Positions 4,563 to 60,370 of a DNA stretch of 64,000 bases are shown in pieces. The position numbers and the translations under genes were made by a program. The DNA is from Mobula hypostoma (lineage: Eukaryota). Position 1 is the first letter of the stretch. Each line of letters opens with the position of its first letter. Below the pieces are notes generated by a model. The model was given only the letters and a program-made list of their open reading frames with translations. It was not told the origin of the DNA and searched no databases. The stretch is taken from NCBI RefSeq assembly GCF_963921235.1, contig NC_086097.1:50284001-50348000 (forward strand). Reading direction: 5' to 3'.

Positions 4563-5479
4563 CAAGTTCTTTAGGCATCCACTGATGATTTCTGTAAGAT
4601 GTGCTGTGACGTCCCGCCCACGTGGAGTTGCGTTCCCCCCCACCCCCCCCCCCGCACGTGTACTTGCATGTATGATGTTAAACTGGATGGCTTAGCCAAT
4701 GATGTTGATTATGTGCTGTTTTTTGGAGAATGGAAGGATGGTATTGACAGAAGATTGTATTTACCATGTCAGAGATACCAAGGGTTATATGGGTTATAGA
4801 GCAGTTATAGAAGCCATCTGTGATTTCTGATTGGAATTATTTCAGTGTCTGATTTGAAAGATCTGGAGGTAATGGAATGGAAATGGGTGATAGTTTAGGG
4901 CAGAGTGACTCTTTTTAAGTGAAGGTGCCAATGTCACAAGAGACCCATCTCCTAAATTGAACTGCATTTGAGTGTGAAAGAAGGTGGATGAGTAATTGCA
5001 ATGAACTTGAGGTAACTTTGGCTTGTTAGCAAGGGGAAGAGCCAACTGACTGGTGTGTCAAATATTCCTTGGAGCTATCTGAAGTGTGTGTAATTGACAG
5101 GGGAAAGCAAGGTCTAATTGTGCTAAATGTGAACACTGGCGCAGTGAAGTCTGCATTGTGGTCTTTAAGCACAGAAGTTAAAGCTCTGCTGGGACTAGGT
5201 ATGGGAGAAATAATTCATTTTATAAACTATTTGTGGGGAGCAAAGGGCAGAAACATTAAAGATGCAAGTGATATCAAATAAAAACAAAAAATTCCTAATA
5301 CTCAACAAGTCAGACAGCATCTGTCGCTAGAGGAATAATTAATGTTTCAGGTCAGATGGGTTTTCAGTCTGAAACATTTCAGTTTCTTTTTCTGCAGATG
5401 CAGCTCACCATTATCTTTGCAACATTTTGTTTTTATTTCAGATTTCCAGCATGTGTAGTTTTATTCACTGGATAACTTG

Positions 5480-8519: not shown

Positions 8520-9340
8520 TACTGTGGAGAACATTCTGACTGACTGCATCACCGCCTGGTACGGCGGGGGGAGGGAGTTACTGCACAAGATTGCAATAGG
8601 TTGTGGAAAGTTGTAAAATTAGGCAGCTCCCCATTGGAGTATCCAAGACATCTTCAAGAAGCAGTGCCCTAGGAAGGTGGCACCCATCATTTAGGATCCC
8701 CACCACCCAGGAAATGCCCTCTTCACACTGTTACCATTGGGAAGGAGGTGCAGAAGCCTGAAGGCACACACTCGGTGATTCCGGAACAGCTTCTTCCCCT
8801 CTGCTGTCTGATTTCTAAATGGGCATTGAACCCATGATCTCCAGCTCACTACTTCTTTATTTGCACTACTATTTTAACTTAACTAGTAAAGGCATCTGTT
8901 AGTCTTGCGAGACCATGGATCTGCACCTGGAAAGTCTTCACTCTCCAGGGCGCAGGCCTGGGCAAGGTTGTATGGAAGACCAGCAGTTGCTCGTGCTGCA
9001 AGTATCCCCTCTCCACAACACCAATGTTGTCCAAGGGAAGGGCATTAGGACCCATACAGCTTGGCACCGGTGTCGTCGCAGAGCAATGTGTGATTAAGTG
9101 CCTTGCTCAAGGACACAACACATTACCTTAGCTGGGGCTCGAACTTACGACCTTCAGGTTACTAGTCCAATGCCTTAACCACTTGGCCACACTTAACTAT
9201 TAATAGACATATATATACACATACATACACTTAATGTAACTCAGTTTTTTTCTCTATATTTATTTATCATGTATTTCATTGTACTGCTGCCATAAAGTTA
9301 ACAAATTTCACGAAATTTGCTGGTGATATTAAATCCAATT
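8520..9340 (+). mobile_element. Rex1/Babar-type LINE 3' fragment interrupted by a SINE
   Basis: Same 3' sequence as the copy at 1-558 (gatccccaccacccagg...ggaaggaggtgcagaagcctgaag); resumes after 9190. Confidence 0.75.
8886..9190 (-). mobile_element. tRNA-headed CORE-type SINE
   Basis: Minus strand: A box gtggccaagtgg, B box agttcgagcc, CORE-like gtgtccttgagcaaggcacttaa. 9-bp TSD acttaacta (8877-8885, 9191-9199). Confidence 0.85.
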
Positions 9341-28124: not shown

Positions 28125-28276
28125 GTTGATGCAAGGAATCTCATCGAAAACATTTTCCAGAACTCTTTTCCTTCTCAACCTATAAAACATGGATTTGAAG
28201 ATTTTCCTGCGCTGGAGAAGTCTCTTGAGATGAACGGGGAAGGATGTGATCCAATTAAAGCAATGGAATCAACAAG
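28125..28276 (+). CDS. CLBA1: CLBA1-like coding exon 2 (VDARNLIENIFQNSFPSQPIKHGFEDFPALEKSLEM...EST)
   Basis: atttccttag| acceptor, AG|gtaatt donor, open frame, phase 0 to 2. Resembles the ENILKCAF...EDVSTIDHFLE segment of CLBA1 as I recall it. Confidence 0.8.
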
Positions 28277-28564
28277 GTAATTTCTACTATTAAATTAAAT
28301 GAGTTCTCTCATGCCTAACACGTGTCTGAAGTAGAAGTTAATACTACTGCATTGATTTTTTTTCATTAAAGGCCAAACAAAGTTTTGTGAGTTGAACTGC
28401 AAAACTTGGGCACATTTTCAGGCAGGGTTTAGCTGCCTTCTAATGCATTTCAAACACAATATAGATAATAGACATAGGAGCAGAATTAGGTCATTCAGCC
28501 CATCAAGTCTGTTCCAACATTCGATTATGCCTGATTTATTTTCCCCTTCAATGTCTGTTTTTTT

Positions 28565-28842
28565 TGTCGTGTGCGTCTGTGCATGCGCAATGTTGGCGGG
28601 ATCATGTCTTTTTCATGCCTTTACAAGGCGCGGAGCGAGAGAGACAGACTGTGTGACACACCATTTCTCACACAGACATTTCGCAGTATTTTTCCCTTTA
28701 TTTTACGAGGTCGAGTTGCGATCTGGACACTCAGCCCAGCATGGATGGAAAGCGTACTCGGGAGCAGACCCAGCAGGGCTCAAACCTGGGAGCCTCTGTT
28801 CCAGAGTCTGGAGCTGATGTCATTGCTCCACCAGCCGGCCCT
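28565..28842 (-). mobile_element. tRNA-headed SINE inserted in an old CR1 remnant
   Basis: Minus strand ggccggctggtggagcaatg (A box) ... ggtttgagcc (B box). Central module cgctttccatccatgctggg shared with 35240-35430. Confidence 0.7.
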
Positions 28843-31352
28843 TTCCCTTTCAGTTTCATTCTCCTGCCTCCTCCCTGTAACCTTTGACCTCCATACCTAC
28901 CAACCTCCACAGCCGTCTGTGGTAATGAATTCCACAGATTCACCAACTTCTAATGATATTTCTCCTCTTTTCTGCTCTAAAGGATTGTGTTTATATTCTG
29001 AATCTGTGCTCTCTGGTCCTAGACTCTCCAACTATTGAAAATATACTTTCCAAATCTGCTCTGTCTAGGCCTTTCAATATTTGGTAGGTTTCAATGAAAC
29101 CATCTCATTCTTCTAAACTCAGTTGAACACAGAGCCGTCAACGCTCACTTTTCAGTCCTGGGATCACTGGATCAAAATGGTGATCATCAAGTCACTGCAG
29201 AAGTGTAGCTAACAAAGGCTGAGATAACAATTATTACCAGACCTCCTTCAAACCAAGGCCTTAACGGACTGAATGAAGTGTTCAGCAGACCCAAGTGGTG
29301 CTCTTTGGTCACTCCAAAATCGCTTTCCAACAATTGGAGATTTTGAAGGTTGAAGTTTCTTCTTCACAATCTAAAAGCCAAAGTGTTAGCTAACCCAGAT
29401 TAACTCACTGGTTAAGGAAAGTGCAGTATCATAATGTAGTTCTTATCAGAGCTTTCATCTGTCAAATTGACAGTTAATGCAGAATTGCTTGAGGACACAA
29501 GATAAAATAGAGCATGTTAAACTCTCTGTTTAATTGTATTAGGTAACTGCATGGCTCACTCAATCCAGGACAGCTTGTCACCTAAAGCTACAAATACAAA
29601 CCACCTTTGATCACAATCTACTCTAGTTAAGAGTAAAATTCGTCTGCAATCTTTGTTTCAATTTTCTACATTCTAAATGTTGTTAGTATTAGTATTTATG
29701 AAAAACTTGGTTTAGCTGATTTTGAAACGTGTAAAATCCAGCCCCTCAGCATTCTAAAAGCAGAACTTATCCAGAATAGGCAATAGAATGTCTTTGAGCA
29801 CTTGATGGGTTTTTTAACATTATATTTCTCTGCTGTGATGTGGACTAAGAAATGGCAAGAGAAAGCAAGTTTATGTTGATTTGGATAAGGGCATAGTGAA
29901 GTGAATTCTGAGACAACAGCAACGTCACAGTCCTCGTCAGAAGTTCCAGCACTTTTGGGCAGCACAAAGAAAAGGCTATGTGCAATTCTTGGACTTTGCT
30001 AGTTTTTAATTTACTTGTATCTTCCAAGAGATTGTGTGTCTTTTCTGTGTGCAAAATTGGGGATCATGTTGCAGACATGCATAAAGTAGGTTCATGTAAC
30101 GGGTATAAATGAATTGGCTGTTGTTTCCTTAGTCATTTTTTCCACACGCCTGCATCTAAACTGCTTCTAGTTTATTCTTAGGCATATTTTGGAAAATAGC
30201 TCTCTGCAGAAAGCCTTGCAAACAAAGCTGGAATGTGATTTGTATCCAAAGGGTAGGTTGTCTGAATGAAACAGTGATTATGTACTTATGTATTTAGTTC
30301 AATCGGCAACCTCCCTGACGAGCCAGGGCCCGAAAGGAGGGTGGAGAAATACCTTGGATAAGAGCAGACAAACCAGAATGGGGAGATTGTCTAAATCCCT
30401 TAAAATCTCAGCAGAGAGAAGAGTGCGATAGCAAAGTTCTTTCAGTTTCATTGCCCCTTACATAAGTTTGACCAAAATAAAGAAACCTTGGGAGTGGCCT
30501 GAATGTCAGGCACCAGTGTAGCTGCTGTAATACCAGCTACGACCTTAAAGTACAAAATGTAAATGTGAAAAAGAAAAATAGAGAAAATGAGAGAAGCAAA
30601 CACAAAGTTAAGGGAGAAGCAGTGAAAATTGGTGGGGTTAGTGCAGATAGGAAATGCGAGATTTTATTGACCTCCTTGGCCAAAGGGAAGTTGAGAGGCT
30701 GGCAGCTTTTCTCTGTTGGGATCCTGCTCGCTAAAGCTTGAAAATTACCAATTTTATTTTGGAAAAAATGTTTAGTTCAAACAGCATTTGGTTTGAGTGA
30801 ATTGGAAACCAGGACATATGTTGCCCATGTGGCACCCTTCCTATGACATAGTGGGTGCTTGTGATTGTAACTTGCACTAAAGGCTAAAATTTTGCTATTG
30901 TTGTATAAAATTGCATCACTATTCTTGTGTCAGAAAGATCTTGAAGTTATTCTGTGACACCTCACCACCCCTGATCTTTGTGGTAAAACTTAAATCATCT
31001 TGACTCCTGAGTGAAAGTATTTCCTTCTGTTCTCTTAACTGTCTAACCTTTGTTTTACAAAATCCTCAGCTACTGACATTAAGTAATATATTTATGCTCT
31101 ATGTTCATTTTCTGAAATGCTAGCTCTGTTGGTATCAGTGGAAAGAAAATCAGAATCCAAGTGCAATGCCCAGCGTGGATAGTCGAAGGGGCGACAGATG
31201 AAATTGTACTTCCCGATTTTTTTTCTCCCCTGTAATTATAAAAGAGCTCTTTCTGTTCCATACATGAAAAGCACTTTCAATGAAAGCAAGCAACACACAT
31301 CAAAGTCGCTGGTGAACACAGCAGGCCAAGCAGCATCTGTAGGAAGAGGTGC

Positions 31353-31388
31353 AGTCGACGTTTCAGGCCGAGACCCTTCGTCAGGACT
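31353..31388 (-). ncRNA. Minimal type I hammerhead ribozyme in Penelope pLTR (left arm)
   Basis: Reverse complement reads agtc CTGACGA agg-gtctcgg-cct GAAA c GTC gact. Confidence 0.8.
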
Positions 31389-31682
31389 AACTGAAGGAAG
31401 AGTGAGTAAGGGATTTGAAAGTTGGAGGGGGAGGGGGAGATCCAAAATGATAGGAGAAGACAGGAGGGGGAGGGATGGAGCCAAGAGCTGGACAGGTGAT
31501 TGGCAAAAGGGGATATGAGAGGATCATGGGACAGGAGGTCCGGGAAGAAAGACAGGGGCGGGGGGACCCAGAGGATGGGCAAGAGGTATATTCAGAGGGA
31601 CAGAGGGAGAAAAAGGAGAGTGAGAGAAAGAATGTGTGCATAAAAATAAGTAACAGATGGGGTACGAGGGGGAGGTGGGGCA

Positions 31683-32009
31683 TTAGCGGAAGTTAGAGAA
31701 GTCGATGTTCATGCCATCAGGTTGGAGGCTACCCAGACAGAATATAAGGTGTTGTTCCTCCAACCTGAGTGTGGCTTCATCTTTACTGTAGAGGAAGCCG
31801 TGGATAGACATGTCAGAATGGGAATGGGATGTGGAATTAAAATGTGTGGCCACTGGGAGATCCTGCTTTCTCTGGCGGACAGAGCGTAGGTGTTCGGCAA
31901 AACAGTCTCCCAGTCTGCGTCGGGTCTCGCCAATATATAAAAGGCCACATCGGGAGCACTGGACGCAGTATATCACCCCAGTCAACTCACAGGTGAAGTG
32001 TTGCCTCAC
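31683..32009 (-). pseudogene. Penelope GIY-YIG endonuclease domain
   Basis: GVIYCVQCSRCGLLYIGET.RRL...EH...VATHF...E.HL...GMN; mirrored on + at ~34380-34708. Confidence 0.9.
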
Positions 32010-33040
32010 CTGGAAGGACTGTTTGGGGCCCTGAATGGTGATAAGGGAGGAAGTGTAAGGGCATGTGTAGCACTTGTTCCGCTTACACGGATAAGTGCCA
32101 GGAGGGAGATCAGTGGGGAGGGATGGGGGGGACGAATGGACAAGGGAGTTGTGTAGGGAGCGATCCCTGCGGAATGCAGGGGGGGGGTGGGAAAGATGTG
32201 CTTAGTGGTGGGATCCCGTTGGAGGTGGCGGAAGTTACGGAGAATAATATGTTGGACCCGGAGGCTGGTGGGGTGGTAGGTGAGGACCAGGGGAACCCTA
32301 TTCCTAGTGGGGTGGTGGGAGGATGGAGTGAGAGCAGATGTACGTGAAATGGGGGAGATGCGTTTAAGAGCAGAGTTGATAGTGGAGGAAGGGAAGCCCC
32401 TTTCTTTAAAAAAGGAAGACATCTCCCTCGTCCTAGAATGAAAAGCCTCATCCTGAGAGCAGATGCGGCGGAGACGGAGGAATTGCGAGAAGGGGATGGC
32501 GTTTTTGCAAGAGACAGGGTGAGAAGAGGAATAGTCCAGATAGCTGTGAGAGTCAGTAGGCTTATAGTAGACATCAGTGGATAAGCTGTCTCCAGAGACA
32601 GAGACAGAAAGATCTAGAAAGGGGAGGGAGGTGTCGGAAATGGACCAGGTAAACTTGAGGGCAGGGTGAAAGTTGGAGGCAAAGTTAATAAAGTCAACGA
32701 GTTCTGCATGCGTGCAGGAAGCAGCGCCAATGCAGTCGTCGATGTAGCGAAGGAAAAGTGGGGGACAGATACCAGAATAGGTGCGGAACATAGATTGTTC
32801 CACAAACCCAACAAAAAGGCAGGCATAGCTAGGACCCATACGGGTGCCCATAGCTACTCCTTTAGTTTGGATGAAGTGGGAGGAGCCAAAGGAGAAATTA
32901 TTAAGAGTAAGGACTAATTCCGCTAGACAGAGCAGAGTGGTGGTAGAGGGGAACTGATTGGGTCTGGAATCCAAAAAGAAGCGTAGAGCTTTGAGACCAT
33001 CCTGATGGGGGATGGAAGTATATAAGGACTGGACATCCAT
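32006..33040 (-). pseudogene. Penelope-type reverse transcriptase core (frameshifted polyprotein segment)
   Basis: Motifs DVQSLYTSI, QTKGVAMGTRMGPSYA, FLRYIDD, LPFLD, YYKPT. Flanking domains lie in other frames. Confidence 0.9.
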
Positions 33041-35001
33041 GGTGAAAATAAAGCGGTGGGGGCCAGGGAACTTAAAATCATCGAAAAGTTTAAGAGCGTG
33101 AGAAGTGTCACGATCATAGGTCGGAAGGGATTGAACAAGGGGTGATAAAGCAGTGTCGAGGTATGCAGAAATGAGTTCGGTGGGGCAGGAGCAAGCTGAG
33201 ACAATAGGTCGTCCAGGACAGGCAGGTTTGTGGATCTTGGGTAGGAGGTAGAAACGGGAAGTGCGGGGTGTGGGAACTATAAGGTTGGTAGCAGTGGATG
33301 GGAGATCCCCTGAGCGGATAAAGTCGGTGATGGTGTGAGAGACAATGGCCTGGTGCTCCTTAGTGGGGTCACGATCGAGGGGTAAATAAGAGGAGGTATC
33401 CGCGAGTTGTCGCTGTGAGGTCAGTACGCCAGACTACAACAGCACCCCCTTATCGGCAGGTTTAATAATGTTAGGATTAGTGCGGAGGGAGTGGAGAGCA
33501 GAGCGTTCCGAAGGAGTGAGGTTGGAATGGGGACAACGTGCAGTAAAGTCGAGATGGTTGATGTCCCGTCGGCAGTTAGCGATAAAGAGATCCAGAGCAG
33601 GCAGAAGACCAGAGCGGGGTGTCCATGAAGAAGAGGAGGGTTGAAGACGGGAGAAAGGGTCATCGGTGGGGGTGGAAGAGTCCTTGCCGAAGAAGTAGGC
33701 TCGGAGACGGAGACGGCGGAAGAAAAGTTCCGCATCGTGGCGAACACGGAACTCGCTGAGGTGTGGGCGAAGGGGGACAAAGGTGAGGCCCTTACTGAGG
33801 ACAGAGCGTTCTGCCTCCAACAGTTGAAGGTCGGAGGGGATGGTAAAGACCCGGCACGGATGAGAGCTGGGATCAGAGGGGGGAGGCTGGGGGTGTCAGT
33901 GGAGAGGGGAGGGTTGGGGTGAGAGGAAGATGGAGCCTCTGAGGGCCCAGGAGTTGACGGTGGGATCTGAGGAAGACGGGGCTGCGGAGTGGTGGTGAGG
34001 GAAGGGGAGACGGGAGTCACAACAGCAGCACATAAAGACCCGGCCTGGAGTTCAAGGCTAGAGTTGCAGTTGGTGGTTGCACAATCGCTGTGAAGGTGTC
34101 CATGGTCGTTGCTGGAGTCCGGGTTTTGAATATGCCCTGAGGTGTTGGAGCCGCCGAGATCAATGGCAGGGGCCGCAATCTGAAGTTCATGCCTGCTAGC
34201 GTCGGGGACGGCAGGCTCTGGAGTCCGTAGATGTAGGATCTTGCCATTCGTCCATTCGTCCCCCCCATCTCTCCCCACTGATCTCCCTCCTGGCACTTAT
34301 CCGTGTAAGCGGAACAAGTGCTACACATGCCCTTACACTTCCTCCCTTACCACCATTCAGGGCCCCAAACAGTCCTTCCAGGTGAGGCAACACTTCACCT
34401 GTGAGTCGACTGGGGTGATATACTGCGTCCGGTGCTCCTGATGTGGCCTTTTATATATAGGCGAGACCCGACGCAGACTGGGAGACCACTTTGCTGAACA
34501 TCTACACTCTGTCCGCCAGAGAAAGCAGGATCTCCCAGTGGCCACACATTTTAATTCCACATCCCATTCCCATTCTGACATGTCTATCCACGGCCTCCTC
34601 TACTGTAAAGATGAAGCCACACTCAGGTTGGAGGAACAACACCTTATATTCCCTCTGGGTAGTCTCCAACCTGATGGCATGAACATCGACTTCTCTAACT
34701 TCCGCTAATGCCCCACCTCCCCCTCGTACCCCATCTGTTACTTATTTTTATGCACACATTCTTTCTCTCACTCTCCTTTTTCTCCCTCTGTCCCTCTGAA
34801 TATACCTCTTGCCCATCCTCTGGGTCCCCCCCACCTGTCTTTCTTCCCGGACCTCCTGTCCCATGATCCTCTCATATCCCCTTTTGCCTATCACCTGTCC
34901 AGCTCTCGGCTCCATCCCTCCCCCTCCTGTCTTCTCCTATCATTTTGGATCTCCCCCTCCCCCTCCAACTTTCAAATCCCTTACTCACTCTTCCTTCAGT
35001 T

Positions 35002-35037
35002 AGTCCTGACGAAGGGTCTCGGCCTGAAACGTCGACT
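35002..35037 (+). ncRNA. Minimal type I hammerhead ribozyme in Penelope pLTR (right arm)
   Basis: Stem I agtc/gact, core CUGACGA (35006-35012), stem II agg/cct, GAAA (35026-35029), palindromic ACGU stem III, GUC cleavage triplet (35031-35033). Confidence 0.82.
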
Positions 35038-35239
35038 GCACCTCTTCCTACAGATGCTGCTTGGCCTGCTGCGTTCACCAGCAACTTTGATGTGTGTTGC
35101 TTGTATTTCCAGCATCTGCAGAATTCCTGTTGTTTGCGTTTAAATTCAATGAAAGCAAAATAGGATTGAAAGTTATACTTAAAGGGGAAAAGAAATGGAA
35201 AGGTACATTGCATCCGGAGTTTCTCCAGTTAGTAGACAA

Positions 35240-35430
35240 TTTCCCTCCACGCCTCTCTGACATAGTGGGGAATCGTGTACAAGGCAAGTTACAGCAGTGG
35301 TTTGCCGTTGCCTTCTGCCTGCTGAGTTTCCAAAGAGATCACCAGCTCGTAACCCAGCATGGATGGAAAGCGTGCAGGGGAGCCGGCTGGATTCGAAGTC
35401 CGGCACTGCTGCCAGAACGCCACCAGTCAC
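35240..35430 (-). mobile_element. SINE remnant
   Basis: Degenerate tRNA head (ttcgaatcc), module cgctttccatccatgctggg, then gaaggcaacggcaaaccactgc motif also seen at ~61535-61560. Confidence 0.6.
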
Positions 35431-36465
35431 TTACAGGGGATGAAGTGCAAATCTACCTGAGTTCTGAAATGTGCACTAAAATCGTACTGTGTTGATCTAA
35501 ACTTTGCATATTATAGAATAATATTGCCAATCCAAATGTGACATGTATACATTGACCAGTTTGGAACTGCATATGATGCAGCCCATCAGCAGTCCAATCT
35601 GTTATCATAACTATAAGGACAATGGCCTGTTGTTGTTTTTTTTGGGGGGGGTGGTTGTGGAACATTTTTCACAATTACACTTAAGTTTTATTTTCAGTCC
35701 ATTTTTTAGTCTGGCTGTCAATGCTGCTAATGCCCTTTCATTGCCATTCTGAGAAGGTGGTGGTGGCTCTGGGCTGCTTTGAGTTGCATGTTGGGAATTC
35801 CAGAATTTTGACCTTTCTGACAGGATGTGTCCATGGCAAAACTTTGAGCTGTGAAAAGGTAGCTTGTGTTAAGGTTAAAGAAACAATGCTGTCATCAGTT
35901 GGATGTGAATTTATTTCTCTACCGATTTCTCCAAACTTTGAAATGTATCCATGCTCTGCTTGTGTCTGGTTTCTACTAATTTCTATCCCTGTTTCAACCT
36001 TGGCCTCTCTCCTTGTTTCTCTCGGCTCCTACTGTGTTGTTATTAATTCATTTCTCAACAGGTGTTCCTAACCTGTGGAGATTTTTGTAATAGTACATTG
36101 CAACATCTAACATCAAAGCCTGACAATCCCATTTGCTCTGCAGTAGGCCACTACTCACAGTTAAAGATACTATACAATGCTTCTTCCACAGGCTCTTCGT
36201 GGACATGCTGTTTCCAGATCTCTTGCGTACTTGGGAAATGTGCAGTATCATGTTTCATCTCTCATGATTTTTGTACAGCAAATTTAATTGAGGATTTTTA
36301 TAACAGCCAGCCTTGGATCTAAATCATTAGCTGCACAAATTGAGCATTAAACATTTACATGTGTTACTTGTTAATAGGAATTTTAAATATGCTATTGCTG
36401 TACAATATATTTTGTGTGCAAGCCATTTGTGTACCACTTGTTCTTAATTTCTTGTTTTCCTTCAG

Positions 36466-36592
36466 TTATGAATTTGCCAATGCATTGGAAGAACTTCAGG
36501 ATCTAAACAAAGTCTGCTTAAAATCATCCTGGAAAGTATCACATTCTCGGGAGAAGCTGTTATCTACACTGGGAATTGATCAAAGTCAAAAG
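36466..36592 (+). CDS. CLBA1: CLBA1-like coding exon 3 (YEFANALEELQDLNKVCLKSSWKVSHSREKLLSTLGIDQSQK)
   Basis: ttgttttccttcag| acceptor in phase 2 matching exon 2. The W..SHS..KLL..LGID motif is characteristic of the aftiphilin/CLBA1 conserved domain. Ends at AAG|gcaagg (GC donor). Confidence 0.85.
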
Positions 36593-38167
36593 GCAAGGCA
36601 TATTGTGCATTTTATTTATACGGTATATTGTACCATTACTTTCAGTTGACAGCTCAATTATCAGATCGCCTTTGGGTGGATGTAAATGAGGAGTGAAATG
36701 AAAAAAGAACCCATTGCACATTTAAAATCATGGTACAATATGATGATCCAAAATGATTGGTGATGTTTAATTTCAAAATGGCTGCAAGAATTATTACATC
36801 AGAGGTTTTCAAAGTGACAACCAGAGGAAAAGGTTGACATGTGTCTGTTTATAATATAGGCTCTATATGTGTAAGAAGGTTCATTAAAATCAGTACTTTT
36901 ATTTGATGTAACATGCACTTTTGTCGTCATGACTTTGCAAAGTAAGCAATAGGAACGTGATTGCAATAGCAATGTGGGAAAGTGTACAATTTAGCTTCTA
37001 CATTAAATATTGAGATAAATGGCCAGATAATCAACAACATTAACTTTGATTAAGAGGCGCATTATTGGCTACCAAACCAGGAGAAGCCCCACACAAGCTG
37101 TGATCTTTTGTCTGCACCAGAACTTTTATTTAATGTAATTTAATCTAAAAACAGTGAGTCTTAATACAGAGAGTATACTTGGAGTACTTGAAAGCACAAC
37201 ATTGAATTTGAGTAAGGCTTCTATTGAAACAAGTTCTAGTTATTGAAAAACAATGTGTTCCCATTTTTCCATTCCATGTACTTGGCTGTTATAATGGATT
37301 CCAAACCTTGCCACTTGCAAAGCTACGTGTACTTCTCAACAGCTAATTATTAAAGATAAATATACTGTTGGAGCTATGTACTGCCAATTTGAAAGGTGAA
37401 AAATCAGTTACGTAAGAAATTAAAAGGGCTGTTGTACACAAACAGAAAACTGAATGTTAAAGTAACTGGGAGATACAATCTTACTGATTCTTAAAGGTAC
37501 ATACACTAGAGCTAAACATGAAAGTTGATGTTGGGTATAACACTCTGAGAGCTTATTGAGATTTAACTATCATTATTACTTTTGCAAGAACAACTTTATT
37601 TTACAAAATAGCACAATGTTTTTTTTCTTTTGGGTCATTTGCAGTGTCCTGAAGCAGGTGGGACAATGCTGAAGGGATCCTCATGTTGCAGCTGCATGTT
37701 ACAGAAACCTTAAATGTCTTGAGGCTTACACCAACACACGGGGAGGTGTATAGCTATTCCGTTGTCTTTGCCTGTTTTGGAATAAGATTTAGTACACTTA
37801 TCAGTCTGAGCAATAAAGACAAAGCAAAGAAAAGCTGGACAGGGTCGGATAGGAGCACTTTTTCTGTTCATCCATTTGCGTATATGAACTTGAATTACTT
37901 GTATTTGTTTTCCTCAGTATGCTAGCTTTGTGAACAGATTTGGTCATTTGAAGATGCCTTTGCACTAAGGTAAAAATGATATAATTCTGAACAGGGTTTA
38001 AATATTTAAATTAAAGATTGGTAGGAAGAATAAAGGTGTAGACTGTTTTCTAAATGCAAGAGAAAAATGAGAAATTGGAGGTGCCAGGGGACTTGATGAA
38101 GGGTCTTGGCTCGAAACAACTGTTCGTTATCCTCCTTGTGCTGCCTGACCTGCTGAGTTCTTCCAGC

Positions 38168-43409: not shown

Positions 43410-43665
43410 TCTTGTCCAATTTCCTCTCCTATCAGATTCCTTCTTTTCTCCAGTCCCTAACCTTTCCCAACCACCTGGCTTCACCTGTCATTTTCTAGCT
43501 CATCCTCTTTTCCCTCCCTCCACTTTTTATCCTGGCATCTTCCCCCTTTCTTTCCAGTTCTGAAGAAGGGTCTAAGTCTGAAATGTCAACTGTTTACTCA
43601 TTTCCATAGCTGCTGTCTGACCTGCAGAGTTCCTCCAGAATTGTGTGTGTGCGCGTGTGTGTTGC
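43410..43665 (+). mobile_element. Solo Penelope pLTR remnant with hammerhead motif (43556-43591)
   Basis: cagtt CTGAAGA agg-gtctaag-tct GAAA t GTC aactg followed by gctgctgtctgacctgcagagttcctccag, as in other pLTR copies. Confidence 0.7.
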
Positions 43666-45818: not shown

Positions 45819-45979
45819 AACAACAGGAATTCTGCAGATGCTGGGAATTCAAGCAACACACATCAAAGTTGCTGGTGAACGCAGCAGGCCAGGCAGCATC
45901 TCTAGGAAGAGGTACAGTCGACGTTTCAGGCCGAGACTCTTCGTCCGGACTAACTGAAGGAAGAGTTAGTAAGAGATTT
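45819..45979 (-). mobile_element. Short pLTR 3'-end insertion of the same young Penelope family
   Basis: Near-identical to the reverse complement of ~34975-35134. 10-bp TSD gggtagtgtg (45809-45818, 45980-45989). Hammerhead core mutated to CGGACGA. Confidence 0.88.
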
Positions 45980-47240
45980 GGGTAGTGTGGCTGAGACTTC
46001 ACAGCACAAGTCAAATTGTATATGCTTTGATTATGTTTCAGAAGAGACCTGGCTTTTTATTGTGAAAATAGTCACAAGAACTTTGTATTGAAACTTGGAG
46101 AAGATTGCATTTGAAACAGTTAGATAATGCCAATATTTTGAGTACTTAATAAAAGGAAAATTAAGAGTAAATGTAAGCAGTATGGCTATAAATGCATGCA
46201 AAGCAAAAACACTTGAATCTATGTACAAAATTTTTGAAAGTGGCAAACAAATTGATATTGGCTGTTTATTTAGAAAGCACCTGGGGTCCTTGCATTTACG
46301 CTTCATTAACTAAAACCAAACAACTTAATCTAAGCATACATAAAATATTGGTTAGATCTAAGCTGTATGAATGTTTCCCTTCTACGGTGTGGTGCCTAGA
46401 GGGACTGGAGACTTGCTGGAATAGGTTCGGGGATGTGGGGTTTCTGATGTACAAAGAAAATTGACACCTGACCTGTCCTCCCCTAAGCAGAGGGCTAATG
46501 AAAAATTTAAGTGTACAAAATTAATGAAGGGTTTGATGAGAGTGAGGAAGGATATTTGTGCACTGTGGCAGAAATCTCAGCAGCAAGGGGAAAATGGATT
46601 GAAGTGATTGGCAAAGCATCCAGAGAAGGAAAGAACTGGATATATTCGAGTAGAAATTTCTCAGTCGAGATGCAGGAGGCTGCAGATGACGGAATCTAGA
46701 ACAATGTGTTCTCTGGCTCTTTGACCACGTTCTTACCAAGAGCCCTGGTGGTCCAATATTTTCTCAGCCTCTGGACATTCCTAGGGTGATATCAAAGCAT
46801 GATTGATTAATTGGCCTCATTTTTTATTAAACCATGATTTTATTCTCCCAGCACTTTGCATTTATTTTGATAGAATCTTTTGGTGTTGTTTGAAGAAAAA
46901 TTCGTATTGCCAGTAGTACTTCAGTTTTCAAATGCTTCGGGGATTGACCTTAATTTGTCAAACTGACTTTTCTCTCACTCAATGTAATTGAAAATTACTG
47001 TCAAAAATGCATTCCACTTTATTAATTGCAACATTATATATTGCAATGTGACTAAAATAATGTTATAATTTATTAATTTCTCTGAAATAGATTGTAGAAA
47101 ATATTTCTTGTAAGGATTGTATAATATTTTATGTAATTTCTGGTTGTAAATATGATTTGACAGTCTGCCATTCACACTGTTTGAATATTAGTTACTTTTA
47201 TTCAGATAATTTACATTTTTTCCTTGTGTATACCTCATAG

Positions 47241-47363
47241 GATAATGGACAAGCTGATCTAAAGGAGGCCATGGCTTCTTATTCAGACCTGGAGAAGACT
47301 GAAGTATTTGCAGGAGTTGCAGCCTTACCTCACAACGGTACAAAGGCCCTCATCCAGACCAGG
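47241..47363 (+). CDS. CLBA1: CLBA1-like coding exon 4 (DNGQADLKEA...GTKALIQTR)
   Basis: cctcatag| acceptor, AGG|gtacat donor, 123 nt, phase 0-0. KALIQTR matches the recalled CLBA1 KALIQTK motif. Confidence 0.85.
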
Positions 47364-56775: not shown

Positions 56776-56913
56776 ATCTCTGTAATGCCACCCCAAAGAG
56801 TCAGCCATGGTTTCGGTCATCGGTTGGAGACTGCGTTTGTGCAGTGGATGCAGATGAATGGAAATCGAGCTTTAAAAATCCCAAAGATCAAAAGACATTC
56901 ATGGTTTATGTGA
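56776..56913 (+). CDS. CLBA1: CLBA1-like terminal coding exon 5 (ISVMPPQR...GNRALKIPKIKRHSWFM*)
   Basis: ttttattctgtttgattacag| acceptor, phase 0, TGA at 56911-56913, followed by AT-rich 3'UTR-like sequence. Basic C-terminus as in CLBA1. Confidence 0.7.
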   Translation: MSVMPPQRVSHGFGHRLETAFVQWMQMNGNRALKIPKIKRHSWFM

Positions 56914-58384: not shown

Positions 58385-58572
58385 CACAAGACAGCAGACG
58401 CTGAAATCTGGAGCAACAAATAATGTGCTGGAAGAACTCAGCTGATCGAGCAGCATCTGCTAGAGGGAATAGGAGGGGGCACTGGCAATTTCTTCATCTC
58501 CCATCTCCTCCACTCTGCGGAGATGCTACTCGATCTGCTGAGTTCTTCCAGCAGATTATTTGTTACTTTGTT
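58385..58572. repeat. Palindromic mini-element made of two inverted pLTR-type termini
   Basis: agcaacaaataatgtgctggaagaactcagctgatcgagcagcatct ... agatgctactcgatctgctgagttcttccagcagattatttgttact (~47-bp imperfect inverted repeat). Confidence 0.75.
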
Positions 58573-59274: not shown

Positions 59275-60370
59275 CTGCAGAAGCTTCTGCGGATGCTGGA
59301 CATCCAGAGCACCACACACAAAATGGAAGAACTCAGCAGGCGAGGCATCTATGGAAATGAATAAGCAGTCAGCGTTTCAGGCCAGGACCCTTCATCAGGA
59401 CTGGAAAGAAGGAGGGAAGATGTCAGAGCGGAGGGGAGGAAGACTAGCTAGAAGGTGATAGGTGAAGCCAGGTGGGGGAGGGGGATGAGCTGTTAGGGAC
59501 TGGGCTGGGGAAGGAGAGATCTGATAGGAGAGGTGAATGGACTGTAGGAGGAGGGGCACCATGGGGAAGATGATAGGCAGGTGAAGAGAAGAGGTAAGTG
59601 GAAAATAGAAGAGGGAAGGGGGAGGGAAAGAATCTTACCAGAAGGAGGAATTGATGTTCATGCATTAGGTTGGAGGCTACCTGGATGGAATGAGATGCTG
59701 CTCCTCCACCTGAGAGTGACCTCATCGTGGCTGAAGAGGAAATTGTGGACCAACATTTCAGAACAAGAATGGGGACAGGAATTAAAATGGTTGGCGACTG
59801 GGAACTTCCATTCTTTGTGGCATGTTAGAGGTCAGTCCACCACACTAGAATAGCACCTCCTTTGTCTTCTGCGGACTTGATGGTGAGGTTGAGATTGGTG
59901 CAGAGAGAGTGGAGGGCAGTACTTGCACAGGGTGTAAGAAGAACTTGGTGTCGTGCTGATCGTGAAACTTGCTGCGCTGTGGACAAATGAGGACAAAGGT
60001 AAGGCTCTTACTGGGGACAGAACATTCCACCTCAGAGGGGAAGGTCAGAGGGAATGGAGAAGACACAGCAGGAATTAAAGCTGAGAACATGGGGGGAGGA
60101 GAGTTGGTGGCGTCAGAGGAGGAGGGAGTGTTGGGGTATTTGGGGAAGATGAGGTGGGAAGAAGATGGAGCTGCTGAGGATCCAAAAAGTGGTGGTGGGG
60201 AGCCTGAGGTGCCTGGTGTTTGGGGTGTGGTGGTAGGGGAAGTGGAGCACGGGAACGCTGCAGCAACAGGGAAGGTCTTGGCTGGAGGTGGAGGTGACCG
60301 AGATCAGGGCTAGAGCTGGAGGCTGCATAATTCACAGTCTGAAGGCGTCAGGGGTTATAGGACTTCCTTA
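59275..60370 (-). mobile_element. Older internally deleted Penelope element
   Basis: pLTR with hammerhead-like core (59367-59402) and GIY-YIG remnant homologous to 31690-31870. Confidence 0.75.

Follow-up and report, generated by a model that had tools for sequence, protein, structure and literature searches.

The 36-mer at positions 35002-35037 of the window, by which we mean the whole stretch of 64,000 nucleotides of ray DNA that was analysed, is a genuine minimal hammerhead-ribozyme motif of a known kind, and both this motif and its antisense copy are part of a single, broken insertion of a Neptune-type Penelope-like element (31290-35144). In our view, to which we assign a probability of about 0.85, the motif is a passenger of the Penelope-like element that is most likely folded shut and has no consequence for the host gene. 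The two copies are:

35002..35037, plus strand: minimal hammerhead of type I (U11.1 variant), on the sense strand of the host gene and predicted to be cut at 35033/35034
31353..31388, minus strand: hammerhead motif of identical sequence, in the 3' pLTR of the element itself and antisense within the host pre-mRNA

The CUGANGA, GAAA and UH boxes are present at 35002-35037 in type I order. Stem I (35002-35005/35034-35037) comprises 4 bp plus a flanking wobble, the core boxes occupy 35006-35012 (CUGACGA) and 35026-35029 (GAAA), and stem II (35014-35017/35022-35025) is formed by 4 bp only, two of which are wobbles. The palindromic ACGU at 35029-35032 stands for helix III and would permit the formation of a dimer, while the GUC triplet sets the predicted cut at 35033/35034. 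The unpaired extra A is A35013, with a pairing probability of 0.86-0.95 for this register versus 0.02 for the A-U register. Rfam scans returned no hammerhead model, either among the six matches in the window as a whole (E up to 5) or among the two in a 151-nt stretch surrounding the motif (E up to 10); the covariance-model check proposed in the earlier note was thus negative. Since these scans neither confirm nor refute the motif, a minimal-hammerhead descriptor was used instead, together with shuffled controls. It found three matches in the window (35006, plus; 31384, minus; 43560, plus), whereas 200 dinucleotide shuffles gave a mean of 0.045 and at most one match, and the strict form of the descriptor gave none in 200 of 200. 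The placement of the motif at 35002-35037 in the earlier note is therefore borne out, and the antisense copy, which had been called identical, is so letter for letter. The description of the motif as intact holds for the core and the ACGU palindrome; it has to be qualified for the short stem II with its wobbles, and for the 10.1-11.1 pair, which is G-U and not G-C.

The 32-nt core with U11.1 is present in 42,421 exact copies in the 3.48-Gb genome, and that with C11.1 in 7,220; when CpG decay is allowed, the count rises to 93,227, and reversed-pattern controls for these counts gave 0. G10.1-C11.1 is called highly conserved in minimal hammerheads in the excerpted text of PMC4209133; the pair is typical of the minimal hammerheads of Penelope-like elements (PLEs) and lies outside the published descriptor. 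Because the same repeat family carries G-C in its 7,220 copies, the G-U form is a variant of the same motif. We considered CpG decay of this one copy as the origin of U11.1 and rejected it, as U11.1 dominates the family. In the folding model, G-U instead of G-C at this position costs 1.9 kcal/mol, and the literature drawn on here offers no source for the effect of G10.1-U11.1 on the cleavage rate. It should be noted that the dominant young subfamily has U at 11.1 (window position 35025), so that the family has been amplified with a weakened closing pair of stem II.

The open reading frame at 1802-2650 has four homologues among 764 candidates, all of them ray proteins with Pfam domain PF15045 and the best of them 94% identical; they are labelled 'uncharacterized' in their sources. 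Laid on the window, these homologues define five coding exons on the plus strand (1802-2650, 28125-28276, 36466-36593, 47241-47363 and approximately 56779-56910), the borders of which were read from the sequence; introns are counted here from the coding exons. We take the gene to be CLBA1-like, an assumption drawn from the Clathrin_bdg match and from protein sizes. Two of the exons border the intron in question:

28125..28276, plus strand: coding exon 2 of the CLBA1-like gene, bordering the intron upstream
36466..36593, plus strand: coding exon 3 of the same gene, with the Clathrin_bdg domain, bordering the intron downstream

The motif lies within this second coding intron (28277-36465; 8.2 kb), 1,428 nt upstream of the 3' splice site, and the homologue-defined exons thereby uphold its earlier assignment to the sense strand of intron 2 of a CLBA1-like gene. 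Exon 3 is found in assembled contigs from runs whose RNA nature is guessed, and as contigs they leave RNA ends and strand invisible. Exon 3 is matched by a 2,501-nt contig from organism A, which has about 826 nt upstream of it and no other piece among the matches listed, and by one of 702 nt from organism B, which has exon 3 only among the matches listed. Both are as expected of a normally spliced mRNA. Joints that skip to 35002 were also encountered in the RNA-type runs, but the intervening sequence is given there as 'not known' and they were not taken as splicing.

The surroundings of the motif identify the insertion to which it belongs:

31276..31289, plus strand: left copy of the 14-bp target-site duplication
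31290..34249, minus strand: body of a Neptune-type Penelope-like element, 5'-truncated, with its RT and GIY-YIG frame broken
34250..35144, plus strand: right arm, an inverted 5'-truncated copy of the element's 3' end (855 columns, 97.3% to 31287-32141)
34710..34999, plus strand: pyrimidine tract, 79% C/T, ending in CAG, a putative 3'-splice-site-like end
35145..35158, plus strand: right copy of the 14-bp target-site duplication

The frame of the body is preserved in three pieces (33434-33895, 32006-33433 and 31683-32201), and its Pfam matches to RVT_1 (E 9.7e-6) and GIY-YIG (E 0.012) both miss the cut-off. A CX4CxxC linker between the reverse transcriptase and endonuclease domains can be read in the 31683-32201 frame; a CX2-5CxxC linker at this place is part of the definition of Neptune and is common to Nematis (PMC8557442, excerpted text). 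The domain order of RT, linker and GIY-YIG fits the Neptune clade, which we prefer because Neptune and Poseidon are the vertebrate clades given in the portion of preprint 10.64898/2026.07.22.740005 drawn on here. Both hammerheads lie about 300 nt 3' of the GIY-YIG stop, one per arm, and thus in the pLTR position. The body, the arms and the target duplication together substantiate the earlier reading of a Penelope-type minimal hammerhead in a pLTR arm. A tail of 35-40 nt is present on the right arm and absent from the left one, and a one-sided tail plus an inverted copy recur at two further loci (L002 and L003); both features are usual in these elements, with tails of 30-40 bp (PMC8557442, excerpted text). 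The arms, which enclose a loop of 2.1 kb, differ at 23 of 855 columns, a likeness (97.3%) that marks the insertion as young. Within them, 164 nt around the motif (34908-35071) are identical, a stretch that was picked after the fact and that counts against the passenger reading. There is a weak hint that the insertion site may be empty in the related organism B: a contig of single-copy depth is 34 letters from an end at 35178, compatible with its starting at the target duplication (an empty site) but also with its ending at 35211.

The structure, the target duplication and the frequency of such pairs show that a Neptune-type element inserted once, in antisense orientation relative to the gene, and that a truncated copy of its 3' end entered with it in inverted form. 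This insertion left one pLTR hammerhead on each strand, and the antisense twin arises from the ordinary inverted-insertion structure of these elements (PMC8557442, excerpted text). To judge from the literature, the hammerhead may matter, if at all, in the RNA of an active source element, as a dimer- or protein-assisted ribozyme.

Four known systems come closest to the ray motif. The PLE minimal hammerheads described in the excerpted text of PMC4209133 possess the same core, a short helix I, the extra nucleotide between 9 and 10.1, the same palindromic 15.2-16.2 in place of a helix III, the location in pLTRs, and dispersed solo copies. The ray family departs from them in the G-U of its dominant subfamily where they have G10.1-C11.1, in a helix II of 4 bp versus 7-8 bp in Schistosoma, and in its roughly 42,000 exact copies versus about 4,000 motifs in the coelacanth and about 9,000 in Xenopus (same source). 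The Neptune PLEs of Craig et al. (2021; PMC8557442, excerpted text) have the same order of RT, Zn-finger-like linker and C-terminal GIY-YIG, the same flanking inverted repeat and a 30-40 bp tail at one end, while the ray copy differs from them in being truncated, in its broken frame and in its clear 14-bp target duplication; its clade is assigned from the domain order and not from a tree. In PAc, a Poseidon element of Anolis (Frangieh et al. 2024; PMC11167929, excerpted text), a hammerhead is likewise located just before two alternative 3' ends, and its inserted copies and those of the ray family are alike without trace of cleavage-defined ends; PAc belongs to another clade and its activity was measured, whereas the ray motif is known from sequence and folding. 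The HDV-like ribozyme of CPEB3 (PMC10274809) and the intronic hammerheads of amniotes (cited in PMC7761336) occupy the same sense-strand place in an intron near an exon. According to the portions of these two papers used here, such ribozymes are few and highly conserved, unlike the young high-copy repeat of the ray, and the CPEB3 ribozyme is active and tuned to splicing, whereas the ray motif is predicted to be permanently blocked.

Among the first 100 copies of the core listed, nine divergent minus/plus pairs (18 copies) at distances of up to 5 kb were found, while 1.85 were expected and the largest number in 10,000 random placements was 8. Extrapolated from one 6.4-Mb stretch, this corresponds to about 3,800 twinned loci genome-wide. 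Close hammerhead pairs on opposite strands were already noted by Cervera and De la Pena in 2014 (PMC4209133, excerpted text). Given this high frequency of pairs and the described inverted layout, insertion routinely yields a ribozyme together with its antisense twin. A domesticated ribozyme would be expected in a single or a few copies; the core at 35002-35037 is instead found in tens of thousands.

The hammerhead-like monomer has a computed energy of -6.0 kcal/mol, and the 36-mer alone prefers a fold in which the core is paired (-10.0 kcal/mol). Without the twin, the hammerhead-like fold has a probability of 8e-4 for the 36-mer alone and of 1e-5 to 2e-7 with flanks, partly because of the upstream pyrimidine tract, the last 13 nt of which are predicted to form a hairpin with CUGA and the 5' strand of stem II (34987-35017; -9.9 kcal/mol). 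Pairing of the motif with its antisense twin, as envisaged earlier, is indeed possible between these identical letters, and the twin duplex (-76.3 kcal/mol) is part of a whole arm duplex of -1800 kcal/mol. As the left arm is transcribed first, about 750 bp of this duplex (-1582 kcal/mol, with a cost of about 12 for closing the loop) can pair before the motif leaves the polymerase; all of these energies leave out proteins, helicases, A-to-I editing and the tertiary structure of a dimer. The two states are approximately 70 kcal/mol apart, which in the model predicts a permanent off state and not a switch. An RNA switch calls for two conformations of comparable stability, and the computed values of -6 and -76 kcal/mol are not comparable. 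Judged by the computed energies, the motif almost certainly does not work as a hammerhead in this intron. The left arm would be made first in the host pre-mRNA, the right arm would most likely zip onto it while emerging, and the motif would be held in a duplex of about 850 bp; if this were unwound, the folding suggests that the motif would be caught by local misfolds. Cutting would presumably not occur at a meaningful rate before the next exon, 1.4 kb further on, is reached, and the intron would be spliced normally.

A second sense copy had been proposed as a partner for dimer formation:

43556..43591, plus strand: older degenerate hammerhead relic, in the next intron, beyond exon 3

It differs from the motif at 7 of 36 positions, carries AUGU for ACGU and has three wobbles in stem II, and it does not qualify as an equivalent partner. 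The homodimer of the motif with stem III has -8.1 kcal/mol before stem I is formed, whereas the dimer with 43556-43591 has -0.7 kcal/mol with stems II and III; with the relic located past exon 3, this dimer was rejected.

If sense copies were harmful to transcripts, they should be scarce in introns. The strand test was carried out on 20 pieces of 10 kb (200 kb) of one plus-strand neurexin-like gene, the strand of which was taken from six laminin-G hits; Adaptin_N genes held too little intron for it. Thirty-five of 61 matches were sense (26 antisense), as were 13 of the 22 with an intact core and 9 of the 16 with core and palindrome. There was no depletion of sense copies in these 200 kb (p 0.31, 0.52 and 0.80), in a test of one gene and 61 matches that misses a moderate bias. 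Tandem retrozymes in Xenopus introns are fewer than expected (preprint 10.64898/2026.07.22.740005, in the portion drawn on), a finding that counts against the passenger reading. Copies made from cleaved RNA should begin at the cut. When an anchor was extended in the 5' direction, the count fell from 117,759 to 106,214 and then to 96,612 copies, with a loss of 9.8% over the 7 bases after the cut (survival 90.2%) and of 9.0% over the 7 spanning it (91.0%). No accumulation of 5' ends at the cut is seen in these block counts, which one of 1-3% of copies would be small enough to escape. The excerpted text of PMC4209133 reports no cleavage of the minimal hammerhead as a monomer and low cleavage as a dimer. 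That of PMC11167929 reports that the Anolis motif was cleaved only with its protein, was unneeded for insertion and left the cut site without RNA-seq ends. Splicing can still take place in introns that a hammerhead has cut, while it is aborted by a fast ribozyme (according to work cited in the part of PMC2995048 used here). The suggestion that the motif cuts the nascent transcript to any effect does not agree with published minimal hammerheads that are inactive as monomers and low in activity as dimers (PMC4209133), or dependent on protein (PMC11167929).

It is unlikely, in our estimation, that the motif is leaky in a harmless way, with a small share of the pre-mRNA being cut with the help of the element's protein or of another copy's RNA, and with exon tethering saving splicing. 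The intact core and ACGU palindrome and the homodimer energy with stem III would allow it, family RNA appears abundant in the RNA-type runs (the type of which is guessed), and both the protein-assisted cleavage of the Anolis motif (PMC11167929) and the splicing of hammerhead-cut introns (cited in PMC2995048) would accommodate it, as far as the excerpted texts go. Any partner would, however, have to displace a cis duplex of about 850 bp, the G-U pair carries its cost of 1.9 kcal/mol, and the frame of the local element is broken. We give hardly any credence to the ribozyme/anti-ribozyme switch that the earlier note had put forward, in which the host would use the pairing of the arms to toggle cleavage of the intron and to tune the CLBA1-like mRNA, similar to the CPEB3 ribozyme. 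Its geometry is possible, with a sense motif and a perfect antisense twin 1.4 kb before an exon; the arms do not differ within the 164 nt surrounding this motif, and a regulatory intronic ribozyme has a precedent (PMC10274809, excerpted text). The reading of a domesticated switch nevertheless fails on copy number and energetics, for its states differ too much in energy and the same layout is present at the extrapolated 3,800 loci; furthermore, the insertion is young, its site may be empty in organism B, and there is no evident trigger.

Similarly improbable is that the insertion acts on host RNA not by cleavage but by way of its long duplex (editing, altered splicing) or of the tract that resembles a splice acceptor. 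Long inverted repeats undergo editing, and a repeat of 855 columns with a 2.1-kb loop lies here within one intron; the 290-nt pyrimidine tract closes with the CAG at 34999, and a candidate donor is present near 35203. Against this, the candidate cryptic exons from 35000 or 35004 to 35203 carry in-frame stops, and the long mRNA contig has no repeat piece beside exon 3 among the matches listed. A further thought, which we regard as very improbable, is that minimal hammerheads are live but gated, the pyrimidine tract and 3' splice site of the element blocking the core until splicing or the element's protein intervenes, while the twin shields host introns from sense copies. If this were true, cleavage of host pre-mRNA at this locus and at thousands of others would require both the presence of Penelope protein and the unwinding or editing of the duplex, and the output of host genes would be coupled to transposon activity.

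The 5' truncations and inversion junctions of the family cluster at the 5' edge of the hammerhead (34999-35008), and not at the cut. Exact copies of 35006-35037 number 39,517; of these, 28,512 (72.2%) survive the addition of 7 bases on the 5' side, and of the latter 24,170 (84.8%) survive that of the next 7, as compared with a survival of 90-91% over two downstream 7-nt blocks that were counted on a looser set. Differences between subfamilies could add to the drop to 72.2%. Of the 15 young copies in an unselected 200 kb, 7 have their start at a position that corresponds to 35001-35008. The spot coincides with the loop of the predicted blocking hairpin and with the 3'-splice-site-like junction; in Drosophila, the Penelope intron ends at helix I (PMC4209133, excerpted text). 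Within 34710-35017 of the window, the CAG lies three bases upstream of stem I, and splicing there could change the fold of the hammerhead.

The single locus matters little, since Penelope-like elements are already known to have such a motif, tail and inverted twin, and the dimer model too has been described for them. What minimal hammerheads do in vivo is still described as a mystery (PMC7761336), and the ray genome should be useful in this respect, as it offers 40,000-90,000 near-intact copies, thousands of which are twinned. The breakpoint cluster bears on the mechanism of insertion and is in our view worth more than the switch idea. A literature search for this hammerhead family in rays found no paper, with subscription papers and the supplements of PMC4209133 outside its scope.

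Several other repeats were noticed in the course of the analysis. In intron 3, a young 162-nt fragment of the family (45819-45980, minus strand) has a long tail, CGGA in place of CUGA in the core, and a change in stem II. Older degenerate relics of related repeats with hammerhead and tail are found at 586, 38090 and 55553 on the plus strand and at 59284-59404, 5300-5354 and 58392-58464 on the minus strand, and the region 59284-60254 also contains older fragments of a Penelope body. A long hairpin of two facing tail relics at 58432-58548, which gave a below-threshold Rfam match to Plastid-psbJ-4 (E 0.0049), most likely represents another such inverted insertion, a short one. In the same intron as the motif, CUGACGA and GAAA closed by CCUCC/GGAGG occur at 30309-30349 (plus strand); this hammerhead-like stretch is without a UH site, fails the descriptor and is probably due to chance. 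One minimal hammerhead of a different family, found among loci L001-L036 or in the window, has another stem I and a longer stem II together with the same core and ACGU. A second high-copy repeat (35193-35431) with a depth thousands of times that of single-copy sequence lies about 50 nt past the right target duplication. Many intronless, stop-riddled Adaptin_N matches in the genome suggest that processed pseudogenes are abundant in it, and a tRNA-like sequence at 9127-9196 on the minus strand (23.5 bits, below the Rfam threshold) is probably the head of a SINE.
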